Below are positions 1-56,177 of a stretch of 64,000 nucleotides of DNA, one piece after another. Under the pieces are notes generated by a model. The model did no database searches. It had not been told where the DNA came from and saw only the letters and a list, made by a program, of their open reading frames with translations. Location of the stretch: the IMG/VR virus record IMGVR_UViG_3300048691_000224; one strand, written 5' to 3'. Position 1 is the stretch's first letter. Each line of letters begins with the position of its first letter. Source of the stretch: a virus (taxonomy: Duplodnaviria; Caudoviricetes). The translations under genes and the position numbers were made by a program.

Positions 1-62
1 GCAAAGATGAATTCTTCGGCGGTTGACAAATAATCTAAAAATTCACCACGTAAACTAGCCAT
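1..62 (-). CDS. hypothetical protein, partial (runs off window start)
   Basis: ATG at 62 with AGGAG Shine-Dalgarno about 9 nt upstream; reads MASLRGEFLDYLSTAEEFIF... open to the window edge; not in the ORF track. Confidence 0.5.
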   Translation of the reverse strand, partial: MASLRGEFLDYLSTAEEFIF

Positions 63-81
63 AATTTAAATCTCCTAATTG

Positions 82-182
82 TAGTCTCTATAGGGCTCGA
101 ACCTATTTCATTACCAAGTCAGCGACGCCTGTTTTCTGACTAATCGAAGGGTAATGGTCTTACCGTGTTAAACGAAGAAACC
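82..182 (-). tRNA. tRNA-like cloverleaf with ~27-nt insertion in the anticodon loop (tRNA-Arg(TCG) or tRNA-Glu(TTC) depending on register); no encoded CCA
   Basis: Minus strand: acceptor GGTTTCT/AGAGACT, D arm GTTT-AACACGGTA-AGAC, anticodon stem TTACC/GGTAA enclosing 34 nt instead of 7, T arm ATAGG-TTCGAGC-CCTAT. Confidence 0.7.
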
Positions 183-195
183 TTAAATTCACATA

Positions 196-387
196 TTATT
201 TTACTACGATTTCATGAGAACATGAAGGGCACTTAATGTAATTAAAATAATCTCGATCGCCAGTATAATCTGTTGAATATGATTGTTGTACATCAGAAGG
301 TGTATATTCCAATGTCGAACCGCAGTTCTTACAAACAACTTCTTTAACTACACTTTTATGTGGTTTTGTATCAATAATTCTAATCAT
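196..387 (-). CDS. small zinc-ribbon protein
   Basis: 63 aa with two CxxC motifs (CKNC, CPSC). Confidence 0.7.
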   Translation of the reverse strand: MIRIIDTKPHKSVVKEVVCKNCGSTLEYTPSDVQQSYSTDYTGDRDYFNYIKCPSCSHEIVVK

Positions 388-390
388 AAT

Positions 391-786
391 TCACCAATCA
401 ATATTAATTGCGTACTCACCTGCAGGCAGTAGACCTTTGGCATGTAGATCATTGATAACCATATCAACACTAGGATAAAAATTTCGAGCCCAGAATAAAT
501 CGATATACCACTGAGTATTTTGATCTGGGATACCGTACCATTCTTTTGGGTCACGAGCGAGCCAGGCGCTGAAACTCACACCCCGCTCTTCACCATTAAC
601 TTCATCTGGAATTGTGTCGTTATCATAATCCCCAAGATACCCATCTGATGGAACTGTGATATATTCCAACCCACGAGATTTACAACTATCTTGTTGTTGG
701 AAATTGTAGATGCGTCCATATGTATCCATGACTAATTGGTCAAAATCATCTACATTGATTGTGTGTAGTGTTTTAATTCTAATCAT
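391..786 (-). CDS. hypothetical phage protein
   Basis: 131-aa ORF tightly packed between neighbours in the same orientation. Confidence 0.7.
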   Translation of the reverse strand: MIRIKTLHTINVDDFDQLVMDTYGRIYNFQQQDSCKSRGLEYITVPSDGYLGDYDNDTIPDEVNGEERGVSFSAWLARDPKEWYGIPDQNTQWYIDLFWARNFYPSVDMVINDLHAKGLLPAGEYAINIDW

Positions 787-1115
787 ACATATTCCTTGGT
801 TTGTGTTTCTTCTATCCAGCGGGCCCAGTAGCCATGTGCATTTATGGTTTCGTCTTGCGTCAATGAGCCAGTAGACACCCAGTGAAAGATGCCACCTTCA
901 TTATCAATGTACGCGCGGGACTGATAGGTCTTCACCTTGGGTCGAATACGAAACTCTGCGAGCTCATATCGGCCTTCGTAGTTACTGATGTATGCTCGCA
1001 AAGTTCGTTCGACTGGCGTGGCTGCACTATTGAAACAGTCCCACTGCTCCCCTAGGAACTTAATGTCTAAGACATCACCAGCGAGGATGGCTTTGATGAT
1101 TTCTACTTGGTTCAT
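783..1115 (-). CDS. hypothetical phage protein
   Basis: Start reassigned to MNQVE at 1115, which gives an ATGA overlap with the upstream small ORF. Confidence 0.65.
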   Translation of the reverse strand: MNQVEIIKAILAGDVLDIKFLGEQWDCFNSAATPVERTLRAYISNYEGRYELAEFRIRPKVKTYQSRAYIDNEGGIFHWVSTGSLTQDETINAHGYWARWIEETQTKEYV

Positions 1116-1276
1116 TTGAAAAATCCACCAAAGTATACACACGCCCAAGCTGGGCTAGCGCACACGACACTAACCCAAAAGTTGTAATTTCCGACTTGCG
1201 GCTTACCATGCATGTGTGCTAAAAATAAAGCACCCACAATCTGCAGGCAAATATAAGCTATTGCATAATTACTCAC
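1112..1276 (-). CDS. small membrane protein (54 aa), absent from the ORF track
   Basis: GTG start after GAGGA SD; (M)SNYAIAYICLQIVGALFLAHMHGKPQVGNYNFWVSVVCASPAWACVYFGGFFK, two hydrophobic segments; stop overlaps next ATG. Confidence 0.7.
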   Translation of the reverse strand: MSNYAIAYICLQIVGALFLAHMHGKPQVGNYNFWVSVVCASPAWACVYFGGFFK

Positions 1277-1296
1277 AATCTAATTCCTCTATGTTT

Positions 1297-1557
1297 TTAG
1301 TATACTCGAACAATCGCTACAACTTCATTCAAATCGAGCGTTTCCAACTCAATTAAGTTGCGTGCACTACCAGATTGTACGAAATTGCTGATCGATCGAT
1401 TGCACAGAGACTGAGGGCTTATGGGGCTGTACGAAGAATATGCCTGATTTGGGTATGCCGTGAGGTTCTCGGTGTTAAAATCGATGTCACAAGACTCAAC
1501 TTTGTCAAGCTCGATAATCGCACCAGACTTCATGTAAATTTTTAATGAATATGTCAT
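1297..1557 (-). CDS. hypothetical protein, paralogue of 2283..2513
   Basis: Start MTYSLK with GGAG SD; shares I(Y/F)MKSG..(I/L).LD.V with 2283..2513. Confidence 0.65.
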   Translation of the reverse strand: MTYSLKIYMKSGAIIELDKVESCDIDFNTENLTAYPNQAYSSYSPISPQSLCNRSISNFVQSGSARNLIELETLDLNEVVAIVRVY

Positions 1558-3586: not shown

Positions 3587-4270
3587 TTATTCAATGGGTT
3601 GATCGGGATTGGGTTTAGCTAATTTTGAAGTTAATTTTTTTGGTTTAGGTTCTTGGAGAGTTGATTGCGCTTGCTTGGCTAGTTCCTTCAGTCGCTTCTC
3701 AATTGTCTCAGAAAGTAACCAAAGTTCTTCACCGTTGTCTATCTTCTTAATCTCATCGCTGGTGAGAAACTTTGAACATATCTTCTTGACGAGATTTGAG
3801 TATTGTCTCTTGTATGCGACAATCTGTCGATCGACGTCCGAACTCTTACCATAGAATCCACCACTGAATGTGTGGAACATCAACATTGTACAATCATGCA
3901 CAACATACTGGTGCCCCGCAAGGAAAATAATTGCAGCCATCGAGCTAGCACTAGAATCTAGCACTGTCGTAACAGTCGCTCGTGATTCAGCAATTGCGCT
4001 ACAAATTGCAATACCAGTATCGAGTCTCCCACCATCCGAATTTAGGTATATCGTGATGTCATCGTGTGGTTCTGCAGTGCGAATCGTATTGATCATCTCA
4101 ACATAATTAGCGGGTGCGCCGATCGGTCCATACAAGTAGTACGGATGTTGTTTTACGGGGATTACCCGCGAAAGACTTTGCTTGTATACGATGTTAATCG
4201 GGGCATCATCTAATTCTGCTTCTTCATCAAGATTGTTATTTTTGGAGATTTTGCTCATTGCCTGATTCAC
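3587..4270 (-). CDS. clpP: ClpP-like serine protease
   Basis: YLNSDGG, ASSMAAIIFLAG (catalytic Ser) and MFH (catalytic His) motifs. Confidence 0.85.
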   Translation of the reverse strand: MNQAMSKISKNNNLDEEAELDDAPINIVYKQSLSRVIPVKQHPYYLYGPIGAPANYVEMINTIRTAEPHDDITIYLNSDGGRLDTGIAICSAIAESRATVTTVLDSSASSMAAIIFLAGHQYVVHDCTMLMFHTFSGGFYGKSSDVDRQIVAYKRQYSNLVKKICSKFLTSDEIKKIDNGEELWLLSETIEKRLKELAKQAQSTLQEPKPKKLTSKLAKPNPDQPIE

Positions 4271-5053: not shown

Positions 5054-5533
5054 TCAGTCCTCCAACTTAGAGTGATATTCGCTCGTGAGCACGATTCTTG
5101 GTAGTGTTGATACGTCAGGCAACTCACCTGACCATTCCTTAGACAGTGTGATGTGAGGGAGATACTCATCATAATCATACTCAGCTCCACACTTCATGTA
5201 TTCTTTGAACCTCTTTGTCGCATAGGGACACTTCACACGGACTACCAACAGTTTAGTCTGGGTATTTGGTGTTTCAAACACATCAAACTTAGTCGGCTGA
5301 GCCTCCACATTCTCCAGATCAGTTTTGAGAGTGGTCCAATCATACTCAAATGGTGTCTTTGAGTACGCAGTTGTGATGTGTAGGTCGTACTCATCATCAA
5401 TTTTGATATTATGATTGCGCGCCCAATCTTTGATGGCAGCAATACTGGTATCACTCAGTGAGAGTGCAGCATAATCCCCGGCGGGTTTCTTTGCTTCCAA
5501 TAATATATGGAGTTTCTTGATGAATTCAAACAT
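5054..5533 (-). CDS. 2H phosphoesterase (T4 gp57B/Acb1-like)
   Basis: Two HxT motifs (LHITTAY, PHITLS) about 75 aa apart in a 159-aa protein. Confidence 0.8.
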   Translation of the reverse strand: MFEFIKKLHILLEAKKPAGDYAALSLSDTSIAAIKDWARNHNIKIDDEYDLHITTAYSKTPFEYDWTTLKTDLENVEAQPTKFDVFETPNTQTKLLVVRVKCPYATKRFKEYMKCGAEYDYDEYLPHITLSKEWSGELPDVSTLPRIVLTSEYHSKLED

Positions 5534-11337: not shown

Positions 11338-12291
11338 TCAAAACGAGAAGTCAGACTCATACGCCTTACTTTGGCGAGTGGGGACTTGTCTGGGAATCGA
11401 ATCGAACATATTATGCAGCATATTGTCAACCAACATACCAACGTGGCGTTGCCTATCAATTTTATCAAAGAATTCATCCTTGAACCACTGAGGAATCATC
11501 TCCTCATCTGTCGGGACAGCAATCGCCTTAAACATACGACCGGCGTGTTCCATTTCATATTTTAGTTTGAAAATCTTAATTTTCATACCACTCGATATTA
11601 ACAGCGACTCAGTATCTCCCGCAGCTTGTCTAAAATCATTATATAAAATTGCTGCTGATACATGGCCGGGTAGGCGTGTAGTTGGGTAGTCTCTAAACGA
11701 GGCTGTGTACTGTTCAATTCCCTTGATACCTTTTGGAAGGCCGAGATCCATTAGATCAATCTCATCAATCATTTCATCACGATATTCCATGATAAAATCA
11801 TCTAGCTCTTCATCAGGGGTTCCTGTAAGCATTTTGTGACACGTAGATCGCAGGAATGCTTTGACGGGGCGGGGGGTCGTAGTCTTGCGCATGTCGACCC
11901 CCATAGCCTTCAGTTCATCCTTGGCCTTGCCTTCTTTGTCGATCACATGGATGACATACCGCTTCTTCTGAATGAAAAATCCTTTATCAGCAACCAATTC
12001 TCTACCAGTTTTAATGTGCTGGTCGAACCCGGGTTGTACCAAGAATGCTGATCGATTGTACGCGGGGAATGAGGCATTGATCTCATGACCTATCTTGTCA
12101 GCAATCTTAACTACAAGGTTTGGATTGGCATTGGGTGGGATTATCTCACTGAGTGAACAATACAAACTGTTGTGCACCAATATACCGTTGGCGAAAAAAT
12201 TATGTACCCCATCAACCTCAATGTCGTACACATCAAGCTCTTGTAGACCCAAATCAATAATTTCAAAATTATCTGTCTCAACTATATTCAT
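11338..12291 (-). CDS. split-intein C fragment (41 aa) fused to the C-terminal part of family-B DNA polymerase
   Basis: VYDIEVDGVHNFFANGILVHN then +1 Ser; followed by PolB motifs KKRY, KAMGVDMRKTTTP, PGHVSAAILYN. Confidence 0.92.
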   Translation of the reverse strand: MNIVETDNFEIIDLGLQELDVYDIEVDGVHNFFANGILVHNSLYCSLSEIIPPNANPNLVVKIADKIGHEINASFPAYNRSAFLVQPGFDQHIKTGRELVADKGFFIQKKRYVIHVIDKEGKAKDELKAMGVDMRKTTTPRPVKAFLRSTCHKMLTGTPDEELDDFIMEYRDEMIDEIDLMDLGLPKGIKGIEQYTASFRDYPTTRLPGHVSAAILYNDFRQAAGDTESLLISSGMKIKIFKLKYEMEHAGRMFKAIAVPTDEEMIPQWFKDEFFDKIDRQRHVGMLVDNMLHNMFDSIPRQVPTRQSKAYESDFSF

Positions 12292-12298
12292 CTATTTT

Positions 12299-13372
12299 TT
12301 ACTCTTCAGGGGGATCACGAGGTGGTAGTTTATATTCTGCACGTATTATGTCAAGCACGTGGCTGGGATCACGATCAAAATCTCGCTCCCACACTACTAT
12401 AGTGCGATAGTTCCGGCTTTGTATGTGGGCAAGTTTTTTAGCGTCTGCGTCCCAACACTGAGATGCGGTTTTTCTGCCTCTACCGCGGAGTGCTTTTGGG
12501 AAGTCGGTTGGACCATATAGCGTTGGATTCCCATGATAGTGATCCCCGTTGAATTCTATACAAATCTTGTGGTTGGTATCAACGTAATCATATTTGTAAA
12601 ATCGTCTACCCAACGGGTCAAATGACCCAAATTCGGTATTTTTTGTGGCGTAATATACGTGCTCATCCGGAAGCTGTAAGTCATTGACTATTAAGTCGAA
12701 CAATACTTGCGACTTTACGGAATAAAAGTTAAATTGATTTGAGAACTTCTCAACCAATTTCTGAGTAGCAAGCTCAATATCCCCATACCGTTGGATATAG
12801 TTGTCAATTGTGTGGGCTTTAGATTTACATAGCGCATCCCATACTACCAACCCCTCATCCACCCCATGCTTGTCCTGGAACCACTGTAGGGATACTCCTG
12901 CAGTTCGTTGCTTCTCGACATAACTGGTCCATCTAAGCAACCCCTCTTGTTCACCATGGCGGGCGATCATTCTTTCTTTAGTCTGCTTTCTGGTTGAGTT
13001 GTATTCATCAAACTGATCGAGGGTCCACCCATGTGTACGCGATTTATACACAAATGTATTTTTTTCAGCCATGAATGCCCGACGTGCGGCCCATTTTGCA
13101 TCTGCGTAAGCGCCGTATGATAATACGTAGCGGTCATATGTGTGGGATAACCCTCCTTTATGCTCAATAACAATCCTCCAATACCGATCAAACATATTAG
13201 GTTCGATCTTATGAATTTCATATTTCAAGAAGTTATACGTAAACTTGTGGTGATTTTTGTTCCCACTATCTTCCAATTGCTTACTCAGTTGCTGGTATTT
13301 AATTAAGTCGATATCTGATATGTCTAGGTTGAATGTAGTTGCTTTATTGCGTAGTGTTCGTAAGGTTAGCAT
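12299..13372 (-). mobile_element. free-standing Vsr/DUF559-like homing endonuclease inside the fractured polymerase gene
   Basis: C-terminal YDYVD...IEFNGDHYH...DAKK...IVVWE; sits exactly between the intein halves; GTAAATA at 13398-13404 upstream. Confidence 0.8.
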
Positions 13373-13374
13373 GT

Positions 13375-15870
13375 TTATGGAGATACAGATTCGGGGGTAT
13401 TTACACTAATCAACTTATCCCCCCTTACTATATTCATCGGTGTTGTGCTTATTATTTCAGTGCCGCGGCGGACTATAATGGAGTGATCAGCTGTTATAGT
13501 AACCGATGCTCCATTTACCCTAACCTCAAACATGCGTTTTTTGACAGTATGTTTCATGACATAATTAATGGGTTTGGTTACTGGGTTGGACCCATCAAAA
13601 CCCACACTCGTTGAGCCGACTACTCGCTTGACATAATTGTTGGTAATCGGGTCGTGTTTTATGAAATCACCTGGCTGCTCCTCGTAAAACTGGGCAATAG
13701 TTTTTTGAATTCCGTTTACATAAATCGCGGTACCCCCAACAACCGAGTCGGTGTCGCCATAGATCAGACATGGGCTTGCAATCTCGTTGTTGATCGCCCG
13801 TGGGTCTTCATCACTAGTAATTGGGTTGATGTTGTAATCTCCATCTATAATTTCACAACCCTTGCGAATTTGGTGCCCGAGTATGCACCTACCTGTTGCA
13901 GTCACTGATTGCCCCATCCGCTTATCATAGAACCGGAAATTTTGATTGAGTAATGCACCGTATGCTGAATTGAGCTTAATTTTCATCGCATATTGCGTCA
14001 TATCTGCGAATTCATACTCTGTCTGCAGTAATGCCGCTTGATGAGCATCAGTCGTTGCTGCTATGGCACCCAATACTTGTTTGGATTGAGCTTGGAATTG
14101 CTTCCTTGTCGAATACCACCTACCGAGTAATGCTGGAATGATGCCTTCAACATCTTGGCGGAAAACTGTACCGTACCCTGAAATGGCATACTTCAGTTCA
14201 ATGAGATGCTCCTTCCACATTCTAGCTGACTTAGTTTCTACTTCCTGAGTTTTTTCCCATCTAAATGTTAATTGGGCGGTTGACCCAGCATTAATCTCAG
14301 TCCACGCAGACTCAAACTCACTGAATTGTCCGATTAACGTCTCGGGTGAAATGTTGACGGTGCGGATTGTATTTGGGTATAGAGAATTTATATCATAACA
14401 AACTATCCAGTTATGCATACCAGTTTGCGGAACTAACACATATGCACCGGCAGCTTGCCCTTGTTCGTCTAGCTGTTTTGTATCAGGGACCCGAACATTT
14501 AACTCGTACCAACAGTAATTATTGATAGCCATCTCTGCAGACCGGACAGTACCCACAATGTTTTTGAAATGGCACGTAGATTCATGAATTAGTGTATTAG
14601 CTAAATTTATAAATTTATACTTCTTATCTAACTCTCGAAGAATTTCAGTGTCACGGCAATTGTACCTCACAAACTTACTAAAGTTGTTGTTGTACAGATG
14701 GTGCAGAGTGCCTTCGTAATCCAACTTCTTGAATCGCTCGCCGAGATGGTCCTGGGAAACAGTTTCCAAGTTCCACGAGTCTCGATCCTCGACTGTAAAC
14801 TTCTTGAATAACTCCATGTAGTCGAGTGTGACGCGGCCATCAAACTGAACAAATAATTGCTCTTGGAAGAATACTTCTTTGGTCTGGAACCACGGCGCTT
14901 TACCTTTTGGAAATGACAGCATCTGCAACCACTCTTTGCCTAACACAATCTCCACTCGTTTAGCGAAGTATGGATCATCAAATCGTGAGGAGTTCCAACC
15001 AGACAACAAATCTGATTGTTGAATTTCCTCAACGGACCGAGTGAGTAGCTCAGTCTCATTTTTACAGAACACAATTGTAACCTTGGAATCAATATCTTCA
15101 AATAAACTGTAGTCAAACAGTTCTTCGACATTGCATCCTGTCCAGGACTTGGGTGGGACAGAAAAGATGACGTACTCGTCTTTCCAGGTGTGGTAGAACG
15201 CAATTGAGTTTAGTGGTGCGTATGGATCGAGTGGTGAGCTGAAACCGATTGGCCCATCGTATGTGTACAATGAATTTTTAACCGCCACCCACTTCTTTAC
15301 CGGCTCATCCCACACCTCAACATCAGGATCGCTCCTATAATCGCGAAGGTCCCAAACTGTAGCTTCGAAGGATTCTGAACCAATATTGCGAAGTTTGATT
15401 TTATGGTCCGCGTCGTACTTTTTGGGCCGGTAATCTACCTCGATGTCATAGTATGTTGTGTTGATGTGAGGCAATTCACATTTATAATACAGCGCACTCA
15501 GCGCCTTTAGTTCAGGTGGAATGTCGCTCTCAAATAAATCAACATCGATTGGTTTGCTATCTAGAAACTTCGACATCTCCTTCTTATTTGAGAATTCTAG
15601 TTCATACAAATCATCACCAAACATTGATTGATATTTGGTAGTTTCATCAATTGCAGTAGTACCAAGCCCCAGAAACTTTTTTAACACTCCATCAGGCGTT
15701 CCTTCTTCTACCGAATCACTAAACTCAGCGTGGGTTGAGTACCAGTCGCTACACTTGATGTAGCAATTGTACAGCGCCCTGACTGTCTTAATCGTCGGGG
15801 CGTGGTTAGGTGTCAGGCGTTGTTCCCAGATGGTTACGTGATCGAAGTGTCTACTAGCTGCAATGTACAT
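13375..15870 (-). CDS. family-B DNA polymerase N-terminal part (gp43-like) fused to split-intein N fragment (123 aa)
   Basis: Exonuclease motifs YDIEV and GWNSSRFD; YDINSLYP, KIKLNSAYG, YGDTD; then SVVGGTAIYV...VTITADHSIIV intein blocks A and B from 13746. Confidence 0.95.
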   Translation of the reverse strand: MYIAASRHFDHVTIWEQRLTPNHAPTIKTVRALYNCYIKCSDWYSTHAEFSDSVEEGTPDGVLKKFLGLGTTAIDETTKYQSMFGDDLYELEFSNKKEMSKFLDSKPIDVDLFESDIPPELKALSALYYKCELPHINTTYYDIEVDYRPKKYDADHKIKLRNIGSESFEATVWDLRDYRSDPDVEVWDEPVKKWVAVKNSLYTYDGPIGFSSPLDPYAPLNSIAFYHTWKDEYVIFSVPPKSWTGCNVEELFDYSLFEDIDSKVTIVFCKNETELLTRSVEEIQQSDLLSGWNSSRFDDPYFAKRVEIVLGKEWLQMLSFPKGKAPWFQTKEVFFQEQLFVQFDGRVTLDYMELFKKFTVEDRDSWNLETVSQDHLGERFKKLDYEGTLHHLYNNNFSKFVRYNCRDTEILRELDKKYKFINLANTLIHESTCHFKNIVGTVRSAEMAINNYCWYELNVRVPDTKQLDEQGQAAGAYVLVPQTGMHNWIVCYDINSLYPNTIRTVNISPETLIGQFSEFESAWTEINAGSTAQLTFRWEKTQEVETKSARMWKEHLIELKYAISGYGTVFRQDVEGIIPALLGRWYSTRKQFQAQSKQVLGAIAATTDAHQAALLQTEYEFADMTQYAMKIKLNSAYGALLNQNFRFYDKRMGQSVTATGRCILGHQIRKGCEIIDGDYNINPITSDEDPRAINNEIASPCLIYGDTDSVVGGTAIYVNGIQKTIAQFYEEQPGDFIKHDPITNNYVKRVVGSTSVGFDGSNPVTKPINYVMKHTVKKRMFEVRVNGASVTITADHSIIVRRGTEIISTTPMNIVRGDKLISVNTPESVSP

Positions 15871-24069: not shown

Positions 24070-24927
24070 TTAATTCACAACCAAATTAGTGAGATATTTA
24101 TGCAGATCAGGCAGTCCGCCAATGGAGGTGCCATCAGGGCACACTATTTGCGGGAAGCTTCGAGCGCTTGGAAACTTCTCACTAAAGTCATCACGCGTGA
24201 AGTCAACATCCAACATCTTGGTTATAAATTGTTTATCCTTGTTTGTCAGTAGCGCTTTAGCTTGATCGCACTGTGGACAGCCGGGTTTGGAATATACAGT
24301 AAATTCTGGAATTCCAACATATCGATCTGCTGAACCAAACATTGGAGCATCATCACCGCTGTATTGGCCCCAGACGTCATCCCAATCACCCTCTGTAGCA
24401 CCTTTGGAATACTCAAATACTTTTTGTTCGAAAAAGTTTCCGTGAGTTACGCTATCAATCATCTGCTCTACCCATGGTAGCGGATTCTTTTTAATTTTGA
24501 ATATCCCCTTTAATCCAAGGGCGATCAATCGGCGATCTGCAATGTACCTAATATACAACTTCACATCAGCTGCCGTAAGGTCTTTCATTTCACCCATCTC
24601 AAACGCGAGATCGATAAACTTATCCTCCAAATCAACCATGCGCTCTGCAATTGTATAGAGTTGACTCTTCAGGCTATCTTTCCAGATGTGTCGATTTTCC
24701 TCAATAAACACACGGAACAACTTAATCATAGCGTCTGTATGACAATTACCAGAAATGGATAGTGTGTTAGCATGTCTAATTTGAAACGCTGTACCAGGGA
24801 CGCTGAGACAAAACACTTCTGTTGACTGAAGTTCTTTGGTCACTTGTACTGCTGATTTGGGGATCGGTGGTAAGCTACCAGCAATCGCCTGAAGCATATT
24901 GATAATATCCGTATTTGTTTTATTCAT
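24070..24927 (-). CDS. nrdB: split-intein C fragment fused to the C-terminal part of ribonucleotide reductase beta, with a C-terminal glutaredoxin domain
   Basis: VFCLSVPGTAFQIRH...ISGN then +1 Cys (CHTDAMIKLF); YIRYIADRRL, NPLPW, NFFE; then YSKPGCPQC and SFPQI. Confidence 0.9.
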   Translation of the reverse strand: MNKTNTDIINMLQAIAGSLPPIPKSAVQVTKELQSTEVFCLSVPGTAFQIRHANTLSISGNCHTDAMIKLFRVFIEENRHIWKDSLKSQLYTIAERMVDLEDKFIDLAFEMGEMKDLTAADVKLYIRYIADRRLIALGLKGIFKIKKNPLPWVEQMIDSVTHGNFFEQKVFEYSKGATEGDWDDVWGQYSGDDAPMFGSADRYVGIPEFTVYSKPGCPQCDQAKALLTNKDKQFITKMLDVDFTRDDFSEKFPSARSFPQIVCPDGTSIGGLPDLHKYLTNLVVN

Positions 24928-25879
24928 TTGTTGTATTCTGAGCACTAGTTAATGTTTTTGCGCGAGCCGCTGCTGCAGCGGCTAGCAGTTTGTCAATGTG
25001 TTTTATGGTTCTACCTAATTTCCACCCAGTTGGTATCTCAGCTAGCCTACCAATAGTTTTAGATTCAGTGCCGTTGGTTATCCACTGCTTATCGCGCTTC
25101 TTTTGGGTCATCCCAGCCCAGAATCCAATTGGAGGATCTATATTAGGCTGAAGCTTCAGATTGGTTGTGCCATCTGTATAGCAAATTACACCCCTAATAT
25201 TTGGGTGATTTGATACTTGCATCCTTTGGGCAGCAGTACGGATTTGGGGTGGGGGTGGATGTTTACCAAATCTCCACCCAACTGGTAGTTGGGCTGTTTT
25301 TAGCATTTGTGTCGACGTTGTACCATCAGTAATCCACCTAAACTTCCCTACTCGAGTTGCTGAGGCCTTGCGCCTAATCTCTATTGCTTCTTCAGTATAC
25401 ACTCGTCCTGTGTTGTTGGGAATACTATGTGGGTGGTCTTGCAACCGCTTGATGTTGCGCCTAGTCACACATTCTAGTTCATCCGCCGAATAGTAACTAC
25501 CACCATTTAATAATCGCCGGGCAGCAGATGTTTTTGCACGCGTAGCGGTAGCTTTTGACCTTGCGGTTTGACGCACATAATCAGGTACACCCGCTAGTGT
25601 GTCTCCACCTTGGCCACCTATTGCTATGTTGTAGGTATCATCCCTTGATACAAAATTAACGTCAACTAGTTGACGTTCTACAGCTCGAGCTTCGTCCCAA
25701 GTGTCACACTCATGCAATGTGATTCTCACAAAGTTATCTCTACCATATTTTTCGACGGCCCTAGCTAACAATATACCCGAACCCAAATACCCATCAAATT
25801 GATCGGCAAACTGCTTGTGGATCCCCACATATATGCGATCATTGATTACGTTAGTTGTCTGGTACACGATATAATTCAT
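24920..25879 (-). mobile_element. GIY-YIG (Seg-like) homing endonuclease inside the fractured nrdB gene
   Basis: YIVYQTTNVINDRIYVGIH...YLGSG; NUMOD-like WITDG / GW..GR repeats. Confidence 0.88.
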
Positions 25880-25941: not shown

Positions 25942-26991
25942 TCAGCTCATGTACTCTAGTAGAAATTCCTTCGCCCACGATGAGTCCATTATTGGGAGCA
26001 GTGGCAATACCCACTCCAAAGACAATACACCTTCTTTGGTGAGTCTACACAATTCCTTATGCTTGTCTGTCAATACTTTCAAGGAGCCACTCTTAGTGCC
26101 CGAGCACACGTAACTAAACTCCTCAGTTACAGATTCAATATCCTTCGCCTGAACGTCCTGTATCCGACCATCACCCATCTCTAAAATCATTCTATGATTT
26201 GGTGATACTGATTGTGAGAAACCTTCACCCTTAAAATGGTACACTGTCGGTACTGTTTTCTTGGTAAGATTGGTTGGAGTCACAAAATTAGTCTGACTGG
26301 TTTCGGTATCATACTCTAACAGTTCAGTAGATAGTGTGACACATTCGATAGGTAACCACCCATCTAGTGTCATAACTTCTGTGCCGGCAACCAAACACTT
26401 CTCATCAAGGATCGACCAAGAGATGTTTGAGCCCATTCCAACCATCGTTCCGTGACGGGGGAAGTTCAATAACATGATGAATGATGAAAATAATTGCATA
26501 CCTTCAGTGAATGCTGAGAATACTGCTAGCTGTTGAGCAATGGACTCGGTGTCAGTTCCGATAAAATTCTCAACATATTCGTATTTTTCACGCATCGCAT
26601 CATATTCTAAGAACTGATTGTAGATTGTGTCAGGCATTCCTAGCGTTTCCACTAGGTTAGAGTATGCTGCAATATGAGTAGCTTCACGAGCCGCAAAACT
26701 TAACAACATCATCCGAACTTCTGGTTGGGGAAATACCGGTAGATAATTCATCACATATGCATTTGCTACACTGATGTCACCTTGAGTGAAAAATCTGAAG
26801 ATGTGGGTCAAGAAGTTTTGTTCAGACTGTGTTAATTTGGTGTTCCAATCTTTAACATCCTCCAGGAGAGGGGCCTCCCAGTGACCCCAATGCATGCGTT
26901 CGTGATCCATCCACGTTTCGTAGCACCACTGGTAGTTGAATGGCTTGTACGATGGACGTGGGTCTGTTAATTTTAATTTCTTTTTGGACAT
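25942..26991 (-). CDS. nrdB: ribonucleotide reductase beta N-terminal part fused to split-intein N fragment (151 aa)
   Basis: FFTQGD, REATH, FTEGMQLFSSF, WSILDEK; then CLVAGTEVMTLDGW...VSPNHRM intein blocks from 26397. Confidence 0.92.
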   Translation of the reverse strand: MSKKKLKLTDPRPSYKPFNYQWCYETWMDHERMHWGHWEAPLLEDVKDWNTKLTQSEQNFLTHIFRFFTQGDISVANAYVMNYLPVFPQPEVRMMLLSFAAREATHIAAYSNLVETLGMPDTIYNQFLEYDAMREKYEYVENFIGTDTESIAQQLAVFSAFTEGMQLFSSFIMLLNFPRHGTMVGMGSNISWSILDEKCLVAGTEVMTLDGWLPIECVTLSTELLEYDTETSQTNFVTPTNLTKKTVPTVYHFKGEGFSQSVSPNHRMILEMGDGRIQDVQAKDIESVTEEFSYVCSGTKSGSLKVLTDKHKELCRLTKEGVLSLEWVLPLLPIMDSSWAKEFLLEYMS

Positions 26992-54719: not shown

Positions 54720-56177
54720 ATGTTAGTTCCATTCCGTCAAGGTATTGTAAATTCTCAAAAACAAGGCTTAGTTCCTGGCTTTTTATCGGTCCAGGCTGGT
54801 AATATTACACTATTAGCTGACAACACTCCTTTGATAATGTGCTTTGCGCACGGCGCGAGTGATTATCTAATTTCCGTAGACTCAACCAAATTAAATGCTT
54901 GGACTGGATTCGGATCATCAAGCTATCCAACAGGGGTATCTTACTGGTTATATATTGACGTCGATCCAGCTACTGGTTTGATAACATACGGCCAGGTCCC
55001 AACCGCCCAAACCAACGCATCTAAAGCTCCTACAAACCCACTGCCTAACCAACACTGGTATGATATGAACAGTTCCAAGATGAAAGTTTGGACAGGCAAT
55101 ACATGGCAAGTTAGAATTCGACTTTTTGTTGCAGAGTTCACCAACTCCTCAACAATTTCATACATCCCGTATGGTACCCAAGTGGGTAAATCAACGAGCG
55201 TCAATGCAGGCCGCATTGCTTTTGACTCATATAGCAAGCCAATCAGAAAGAGTACGGGTGAATTTTTTACAACTGAAGACTCAATCTATGTAAATGGAAT
55301 CGTATCTGCACCTAACTCTTATGAGACCCGCCGTCTTGCTGTTACCGCCCTGGAGCCAATTCCAGCGAGATCGATCGTGGCACTTGCACAGTTCGATAAA
55401 GTTGTTGTAGCTCGATATGAAGATACTGGGACACGAGTACTAGGATTTGCAAACAATGCAATGGCTATTGGCCAGACAGAAGAAATTGTATTAAGTGGTG
55501 TGATCGAGAATACCGCATGGAACTTCTCGACAGTGAATGATAATATATGGGTAGAGCTTGGCCAGCCGGTTGTAGTGAGTCCTTTTGCAGTTACGTCTGG
55601 TCGAGGAATTCAACAGCCAATCGGTAAGGTAATTGCACCACAAAAGATTCGTTTTAATCCTCCAAATTTCCACATACCTACCGTGGCTGGTACCCCAACC
55701 GCTGGACCGACAAATATATGGATTACAACAATCGACACCAGTAATGCAGCAAACTTGCTGAGTTACGGTACCTATGACACGCACAAGTTCACTGGAAATA
55801 CAGTATCGAGTACTGCAATATTACCACCATCAGCACCACATCGGATGAAGTTAACCCCCGGGTACTATACATTTACATTCAATGGTGCGCTCTCAGCAGA
55901 TTTCATCGGCAATCCCCGAACTACCATCGCAGTTTCCAACGCTCCAACCGCGTGGCCACTACTGCCGGCCCAAGGATGGACATCTCAAAATACTGGTGGT
56001 GTATCGGACACGGAGACGGGTTTGACTGAAGTTGTTGAGTCGGTTACATACACAACGACCCTACTGGTGGTTGACGAAGTAGAGTTTGCGATTCAAAATA
56101 CATTAAACCCAAATACGCTAGTTCGAACTTCAGTCACAGGAACGTTGATTATCGAGCAACTCAATGTAACCATTTAA
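54720..56177 (+). CDS. virion structural protein
   Basis: FRQGIV N-terminus, QHWYD..S.KMKVW.G..W module; CTAAATA at 54681-54687. Confidence 0.7.
   Translation: MLVPFRQGIVNSQKQGLVPGFLSVQAGNITLLADNTPLIMCFAHGASDYLISVDSTKLNAWTGFGSSSYPTGVSYWLYIDVDPATGLITYGQVPTAQTNASKAPTNPLPNQHWYDMNSSKMKVWTGNTWQVRIRLFVAEFTNSSTISYIPYGTQVGKSTSVNAGRIAFDSYSKPIRKSTGEFFTTEDSIYVNGIVSAPNSYETRRLAVTALEPIPARSIVALAQFDKVVVARYEDTGTRVLGFANNAMAIGQTEEIVLSGVIENTAWNFSTVNDNIWVELGQPVVVSPFAVTSGRGIQQPIGKVIAPQKIRFNPPNFHIPTVAGTPTAGPTNIWITTIDTSNAANLLSYGTYDTHKFTGNTVSSTAILPPSAPHRMKLTPGYYTFTFNGALSADFIGNPRTTIAVSNAPTAWPLLPAQGWTSQNTGGVSDTETGLTEVVESVTYTTTLLVVDEVEFAIQNTLNPNTLVRTSVTGTLIIEQLNVTI

Follow-up and report, generated by a model that had tools for sequence, protein, structure and literature searches.

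A tRNA-Arg(UCG)-like gene of a T4-like phage with a 27-nt hairpin insert in its anticodon loop: a candidate for protein-dependent splicing

Introduction

Splicing of tRNA precursors by proteins is regarded as a trait of archaea and eukaryotes; from the tRNA genes of bacteria and phages, only self-splicing group I introns are known. To our knowledge, there is no known case of protein-dependent tRNA splicing in bacteria or their phages, and a literature search returned neither such splicing nor any short hairpin introns in their tRNAs. The stretch of DNA analysed here (64,000 nucleotides of IMG/VR record IMGVR_UViG_3300048691_000224, hereafter the window) carries a tRNA-shaped gene with a short hairpin inserted into its anticodon loop. 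The window belongs to an uncultured T4-like phage and encodes a T4-type portal protein, prohead protease, baseplate protein and family B DNA polymerase; it further encodes ribonucleotide reductase, a gp46/47-like nuclease, Acb1/57B, dihydrofolate reductase (DHFR) and a dexA-like exonuclease. The question raised by this locus is how such a gene should be read: as a decoding tRNA from which an intron is removed, as a structured RNA that is used together with its insert, or as a tRNA gene that the insertion has inactivated.

Results

Identification of the gene

The gene is 101 nt long and forms a complete cloverleaf. Its parts and its two flanking genes are located as follows (positions of the window):

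1-76, minus strand: downstream neighbour, with a Shine-Dalgarno sequence AGGAG at 72-76 and an ATG at 60-62; the open reading frame runs off the window
82-182, minus strand: whole tRNA-like gene (RF00005, 38.5 bits; ARAGORN -i -ps)
144-182, minus strand: 5' exon, tRNA positions 1-37 (direct reading and Infernal alignment)
145-147, minus strand: anticodon UCG, positions 34-36, between C32-U33 and A37 (ARAGORN)
117-143, minus strand: 27-nt insert UU-AGUCAG-AAAACAGGCGUCG-CUGACU (ARAGORN intron call and anticodon-arm folds)
82-116, minus strand: 3' exon (Infernal alignment)
196-387, minus strand: upstream neighbour, a 63-aa zinc-ribbon protein (phrog_2834); 13 nt separate its stop from the tRNA 5' end

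The original prediction, made from the letters of the sequence, held that all arms of a tRNA are present at this locus. This is borne out by a sensitive scan of window positions 1-500, in which the Rfam model RF00005, with a gathering score of 29 bits, matched 182->82 at 38.5 bits (E 1.2e-6) and was covered end to end, from model position 1 to 71. In the Infernal alignment, the anticodon loop takes up 29 inserted nt. The run of ARAGORN with introns allowed, which had been proposed at the outset, was made at a lowered threshold (-i -ps) and calls a tRNA-Arg(UCG) with a 27-nt intron after position 37. This call agrees with the outcome foreseen for removing about 27 nt after that position, and the 74-mer obtained by splicing in silico is recognised as tRNA-Arg(UCG) at the default threshold of the program. 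The 101-nt gene itself is missed by ARAGORN run on the window with default settings, by Rfam at the gathering threshold and by a sensitive Rfam scan ('evalue' mode) over all 64 kb. Two further ARAGORN calls at lowered threshold, a tRNA-Ser with an 8-nt intron and a permuted tmRNA (55901-55980 and 24935-25636), were rejected; they lie inside protein-coding genes and are without Rfam support.

The minimum free energy of the 101-mer does not stand out from that of shuffled sequences (z -0.22). Thus, the evidence for a real gene is provided by the covariance-model score and by conservation, and not by thermodynamics. Positions 82-182 are a genuine tRNA-derived gene that has been maintained.

Structure of the tRNA body and of the insert

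The acceptor stem GGUUUCU/AGAGACU comprises seven pairs, two of them G.U including G1.U72. The discriminator is A73, and CCA is not encoded, as is likewise the case for several T4 tRNAs. Within the 5' exon, the 5' strand of the acceptor stem is followed by U8, a D arm with A14, G18, G19, U20 and A21, the 5' strand UUACC of the anticodon stem and the loop bases CUUCGA. The 3' exon continues with U38, the 3' strand GGUAA of the anticodon stem, a 4-nt variable region, a canonical T arm (AUAGG-UUCGAGC-CCUAU), the 3' strand of the acceptor stem and A73. All of the universal bases U8, A14, G18, G19, A21, G53-C61, U54, U55, C56, R57 and A58 are present. The Levitt pair 15/48 is a non-standard A/A, and the D stem contains either a U11xC24 mismatch (Infernal) or, in the ARAGORN structure, leaves a 2-nt position-26 linker between the D and anticodon stems. 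U20 follows directly on G18 and G19; the next base or bases are A, to be counted as 20a/21 or as 21 depending on the D-stem register.

Read in the minus-strand orientation, the anticodon stem UUACC/GGUAA encloses CUUCGAUU-AGUCAG-13 nt-CUGACU-U, 34 nt altogether, which is the arrangement (stem TTACC/GGTAA around 34 nt including a 6-bp hairpin) described in the original prediction. The hairpin of the insert is built from 6-bp arms at 136-141 and 117-122 with a 13-nt loop at 123-135, and in the folds an asymmetric internal loop of 8 nt and 1 nt separates it from the 5-bp anticodon stem. The boundary of the insert can slide by 1 nt with an identical product, U being present on both sides. The gene, with its 34-nt loop, does not show the usual 7-nt loop in which U33 and a purine 37 flank the anticodon; such a loop, CUUCGAU, appears after in-silico removal of the insert. 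When all 27-nt deletions within the loop are enumerated, only the UCG register leaves U33 and a purine 37. The alternative UUC (Glu) register, which had also been put forward, would require C33 and is preferred by neither program.

Several identities of the insert were considered and rejected. As had been argued from its size, the insert is too short for a group I intron; it measures 27 nt, and the sensitive scan of positions 1-500 finds neither an intron family nor any other Rfam family for it at E<=10. A bulge-helix-bulge intron was sought exhaustively in both topologies. The only strict match pairs the acceptor with the variable region, outside the insert, and no pair of bulges brackets the insert, in agreement with the earlier remark that no clean bulge-helix-bulge is to be seen. 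Half of such a motif, an AUU bulge with a 4-bp helix, can be drawn at the 5' site if C35 and G36 pair with U38 and G39. A hammerhead-like reading of GUC/GAAA/CUGA has the elements in the wrong order, CUGAC being the hairpin complement, and if RNase P and RNase Z released the hairpin as a mini-helix, the remaining loop would have 8 nt. The hairpin is also not a repeated or mobile element, as it occurs once in the 64-kb window with no second copy. No site in the window pairs with the insert loop above chance, and an opposite-strand coding frame is open in the related contig introduced below but not in the window, where it contains a stop. Finally, RNase E prefers RN|WU, to which the 5' junction GA|UUA is similar and the 3' junction is not; we gave this resemblance no weight.

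Codon use and arginine identity

In window genes of at least 100 codons, CGA is the commonest arginine codon (200 of 788, or 25%; 10.4 per thousand codons). Its share amounts to 24% in replication genes and 26% in structural genes, and the preference tracks a general bias to A-ending codons. The resulting CGA demand would be met directly by a UCG anticodon. The bacterial arginine identity set consists of A/G73, A20, C35 and U/G36, with A20 as the strongest element (PMC9976931). Three of these four elements are present in the gene (A73, C35 and G36). A20, the main determinant for bacterial arginyl-tRNA synthetase (ArgRS), is replaced by U20; at this place T4 tRNA-Arg has GGA.

Conservation in the one relative

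An ortholog is found in the related contig IMGVR_UViG_3300046336_000201 (L001 4608-4708), where RF00005 scores 40.8 bits. Degenerate orthologous loci had been named in the original prediction as an observation that would speak against it; this single ortholog is intact, with cloverleaf and hairpin kept. The two genes differ at 3 of 101 nt. An A to G change at 141, at the base of the hairpin, converts an A-U pair to G.U and is the sole difference within the insert; G57 is changed to A57 in the T loop (98), and U72 to C72 (83), whereby G1.U72 becomes G1-C72. The 5' exon is free of differences, and none of the three changes removes a pair or alters a conserved base class. By comparison, 39 of 196 third codon positions differ in the two adjacent upstream genes (20%, with 11-13% difference overall), as do 5 of 31 positions in the two short spacers that abut the tRNA.

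At a rate of 20%, the binomial probability of so few differences is 5e-7 over all 101 nt, 1e-5 in the exons and 0.019 in the insert taken by itself; for the 13-nt insert loop, in which 13 of 13 positions are conserved, it is about 0.055. The least-diverged 101-nt segments of an 800-nt alignment are those over the tRNA. Compensatory double changes were not seen in this comparison of two sequences. With 3 of 101 differences against about 20% at neighbouring third positions, we infer that purifying selection has acted on exons and insert alike ever since the two phages diverged, and the conservation of the insert-bearing gene is thus evidence against a decaying pseudogene. As far as can be judged from the two sequences, such conservation would fit a spliced tRNA and a functional unspliced RNA alike, and likewise both readings offered in the original prediction, a protein-spliced intron and an anticodon-shielded mimic.

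Distribution

The insert-bearing tRNA gene is restricted to one narrow lineage. Among 50,697 phage records, neither megablast nor blastn, with window positions 1-1500 and the 101-mer as queries, turned up a homolog of the element. Patterns for the gapped anticodon arm, the 3' half, the 5' half, an intron-less anticodon arm and the neighbouring promoter block were scanned against IMG/VR and returned only the related contig UViG_3300046336_000201 (L001, L004, L014), plus a chance match in a coding region (L003). A pattern scan of metagenomes, in which loops of 7-37 nt were allowed and the intron-less form was therefore included, yielded 0 matches, and the one match in bacterial genomes, in a Desulfopila MAG, is a chance match and not a tRNA.

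The loci around neighbouring genes give the same picture from the protein side. At neighbour-protein loci from IMG/VR and metagenomes (L002, L005-L011, L015-L021) no tRNA is found at the syntenic site. Homologs of the 63-aa zinc-ribbon protein in other phage contigs (52-62% identity) are directly followed by a protein gene with no tRNA, in 7 more distant phage contigs no tRNA comes after the zinc-ribbon gene, and more distant phages in which the 131-aa or the 63-aa gene is also found have a protein gene at the tRNA's place. The 131-aa neighbour has no Pfam family, and its Atlas matches are hypothetical viral proteins. Closer relatives of the neighbouring genes do exist in the protein database (P0001 95%, P0003 80%, P0004 75%), and in five related IMG/VR records the tRNAs are all of normal length.

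Genomic context

The downstream Shine-Dalgarno sequence starts 5 nt past the tRNA 3' end on the same strand. A sigma-70-like promoter is not found at 183-400 on the minus strand, the nearest promoter-like site being located at 1278-1250. Given flanking genes on the same strand and no nearby promoter, the tRNA appears embedded in an mRNA and thus needs to be cut from a polycistronic transcript. On the same strand, Acb1/57B is located 4.9 kb upstream of the gene; in T4, the tRNA cluster is placed on the corresponding side, downstream of 57B, and so are the stable RNAs C and D. Searches of 45 window ORFs with Pfam or PHROGs showed no RNA ligase, polynucleotide kinase, RtcB or EndA-like nuclease.

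Some further features of the window and of the related contig were recorded alongside. A few kb upstream of the tRNA, the same strand encodes Acb1 (anti-CBASS, T4 57B-like; 5054-5533) and a ClpP-like protease (3587-4270). In the related contig, the region 1.5-2 kb downstream of the tRNA (L001:6140-6830) contains three structured RNAs whose ends are zipped into long stems. At least two of them follow a repeated promoter block, TTGACTTAT...GATAAT, of which exact copies are present at L004 9580 and 9994. The structured RNA at L001 6629-6712 still has its D and T arms and reaches 27.4 bits with the Rfam tRNA model; for two of the three RNAs the fold z-scores are -3.5 and -2.9. These RNAs look like non-decoding tRNA-derived RNAs. 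Between them and the tRNA, L001:5474-6142 encodes a 222-aa protein with little else than pentapeptide repeats (A-N-L-S/T/K-x), which might serve as a DNA mimic or in anti-defence.

In the window, the small subunit of ribonucleotide reductase is split into an N-terminal part (25942-26991) and a C-terminal part that is fused to a glutaredoxin domain (24070-24945), and a gene for a GIY-YIG homing endonuclease (24920-25879) is situated between the two. The family B DNA polymerase is apparently interrupted as well (window:11338-15870): a part with the polB N-terminal and exonuclease regions (13375-15870) is followed by a 357-aa ORF of phrog_22677 (12299-13372), and the ORF at 11338-12291 opens with an intein C-terminal splicing motif.

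Discussion

Splicing as a possible route to a decoding tRNA

The reading towards which we lean, with a confidence that stays a little below even, is that of a tRNA-Arg(UCG) gene interrupted after nucleotide 37 by a 27-nt hairpin mini-intron that is removed by proteins. It is favoured because CGA is heavily used and because removal of the insert yields a canonical 7-nt loop, and it is weakened because of U20 and because no splicing or ligation enzyme is found among the 45 window ORFs searched. The three arginine identity elements that are present, the position downstream of Acb1/57B, as for the tRNA genes of T4, and the Lak introns discussed below are further points in its favour; the missing bulge-helix-bulge and the D-stem irregularity count against it. 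The protein-spliced intron suggested in the original prediction thus holds up with regard to codon use and the anticodon loop and less well with regard to position 20 and the enzymes. The fully conserved 13-nt loop is an argument against simple excision, as it is not required for removal.

On the splicing reading, the gene would be co-transcribed with its neighbours and then released by RNase P and a 3' endonuclease, and CCA would be supplied by a CCA-adding enzyme as for several T4 tRNAs. Protein endonucleases would make two cuts, one within the unpaired AUU that precedes the hairpin and one at the hairpin's 3' base. The tRNA body would hold the two halves together until they are sealed by an RNA ligase, the candidates being a phage enzyme of the Rnl type and the host's RtcB. 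Hereby, the spliced junction would read CCCUUCGAU|GGUAAUG, and the product would decode CGA and CGG. In addition, the insert could hide the tRNA-Arg(UCG) from host anticodon-loop nucleases until it is processed. We are slightly more hesitant about the general proposition, namely that bacteria or their phages possess a protein-based cut-and-rejoin splicing of tRNAs that operates without a ribozyme core or a bulge-helix-bulge and has the 27-nt hairpin as a substrate.

Comparison with known systems

The Lak megaphages contain tRNA introns that were termed 'enigmatic' and whose removal mechanism is unknown (Devoto et al. 2019, PMC6784885, Table S6). Like the insert described here, the Lak introns interrupt a phage tRNA one base after the anticodon (37/38), have no Rfam match and no ribozyme core, and are highly conserved between phage variants. 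The respective tRNA genes are, as in our case, missed by bacterial-mode tRNA finders. However, the Lak inserts that are shown are longer, with 79 and 93 nt, and include a tRNA-like T arm (GGTTCGAWTCC), whereas the present insert is a plain 27-nt hairpin with no T-arm motif, and the hosts of Lak phages are gut Prevotella, whereas the phage studied here is T4-like.

The protein-spliced introns of archaea and eukaryotes (EndA/TSEN together with RtcB or Trl1) share with the insert the position 37/38, the small size and a 5' splice site that is unpaired beside the intron helix. Commonly, tRNA introns of archaea and eukaryotes are 11-60 nt long. In contrast to the two 3-nt bulges around a 4-bp helix that characterise them, the insert has no second bulge and no such helix, and an EndA-type endonuclease is not found among the 45 window ORFs searched. 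Nor do we know of an EndA-type splicing endonuclease in the bacterial hosts of T4-like phages. Group I introns resemble the insert in that they interrupt the anticodon loop of a bacterial-type tRNA gene, but they comprise at least 200 nt with a conserved catalytic core (P3-P9), compared with 27 nt here.

In T4, tRNA-Lys cleaved by PrrC is healed and sealed by Pnkp and Rnl1. This repair shows that a tRNA with a break in the anticodon loop can be rejoined by T4-like phages, which corresponds to the ligation half of the proposed route. The T4 repair differs in that it mends a single break from which nothing is excised, and no Pnkp or Rnl homolog is present among the 45 window ORFs searched. The T4 RNAs rnaC and rnaD and the stem-clamped RNAs of the present lineage are further structured, non-decoding RNAs in the tRNA region. 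Unlike them, the gene described here has free, normal acceptor ends and an anticodon arm that is complete except for the insert, and no sequence similarity was found between the gene and either rnaC/rnaD or the stem-clamped RNAs.

Alternative explanations

The reading that competes most directly with splicing is that the 101-nt RNA is never spliced and is itself a stable tRNA-shaped product, whose enlarged anticodon arm blocks decoding. Among its possible roles are those of a decoy or competitor that engages a host tRNA-directed nuclease or a tRNA-binding defence protein, of a ligand bound by a phage enzyme, and of a signal for RNase P/Z processing by which the flanking mRNAs are separated. 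We take this for a serious possibility, though a somewhat less likely one than splicing. In line with it, the lineage has what look like other non-decoding tRNA-derived RNAs (the three in L001, one of them at 27.4 bits), and T4 keeps the stable RNAs C and D, of unknown function, beside its tRNAs. The lack of the ArgRS determinant A20 and of encoded splicing machinery in the window (45 ORFs searched) points the same way, and the 13/13 conservation of the insert loop, at a probability of about 0.055, is a hint of a sequence-specific role. Moreover, with the downstream ribosome-binding site 5 nt past the tRNA, tRNA processing would set the 5' end of that mRNA. A decoy or a signal would, however, have no need of the intact C32-U33-UCG-A37-U38 loop, a weak argument in that it comes from two sequences, and the match of the anticodon to the commonest arginine codon would be coincidental. 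Similarity to T4 rnaC/rnaD also does not extend beyond 7-nt T-loop words.

A tRNA-Arg gene that was inactivated by the 27-nt insertion, be it a pseudogene that has not yet decayed or a recent recombination patch between two phages, appears unlikely to us. The confinement of the element to a narrow lineage and its absence from the syntenic site in L002 would fit such an origin, as would the small defects of the tRNA body (G1.U72, the D-stem irregularity and U20) and the mosaic nature of T4-like genomes. Against it stand the 3 differences in 101 nt compared with about 20% at third positions and 5 of 31 positions in the abutting spacers, and the fact that the three changes cost neither a pair nor a conserved base class; the ends of a recombination patch would furthermore have to fall a few bases from both tRNA termini. 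Least probable of all, and in our view very improbable, is an excision by host RNase III, which would cut both sides of the insert helix and leave a ligase to rejoin the tRNA. It would have the merit of 5'-phosphate and 3'-OH ends, which according to established enzymology can be sealed directly by an ATP-dependent ligase. Yet known RNase III substrates possess about a helical turn or more of duplex and are typically cut with a 2-nt 3' overhang, whereas the stem here has only 6 bp, with a 13-nt loop on one side and the 8/1-nt internal loop before the anticodon stem on the other. By inspection, cuts that restore a 7-nt loop leave the hairpin with a 5' overhang of 2 nt or with a single nt at either end, and the RNase III stagger would instead yield a 9-nt loop and lose the C31-G39 pair.

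Conclusion

In conclusion, the insert is a putative, unexplained phage tRNA intron, and it would be categorically new only with proven splicing that depends on neither a bulge-helix-bulge nor a ribozyme. If the RNA is spliced, this would point to an unrecognised RNA cut-and-rejoin pathway in bacterial systems; if it is not, the gene would represent a new form among the poorly understood tRNA look-alike RNAs of large phages. Since default ARAGORN, Rfam at its gathering threshold and the whole-window scan are all blind to this gene, phage tRNA inventories and analyses of codon supply undercount insert-bearing tRNAs.
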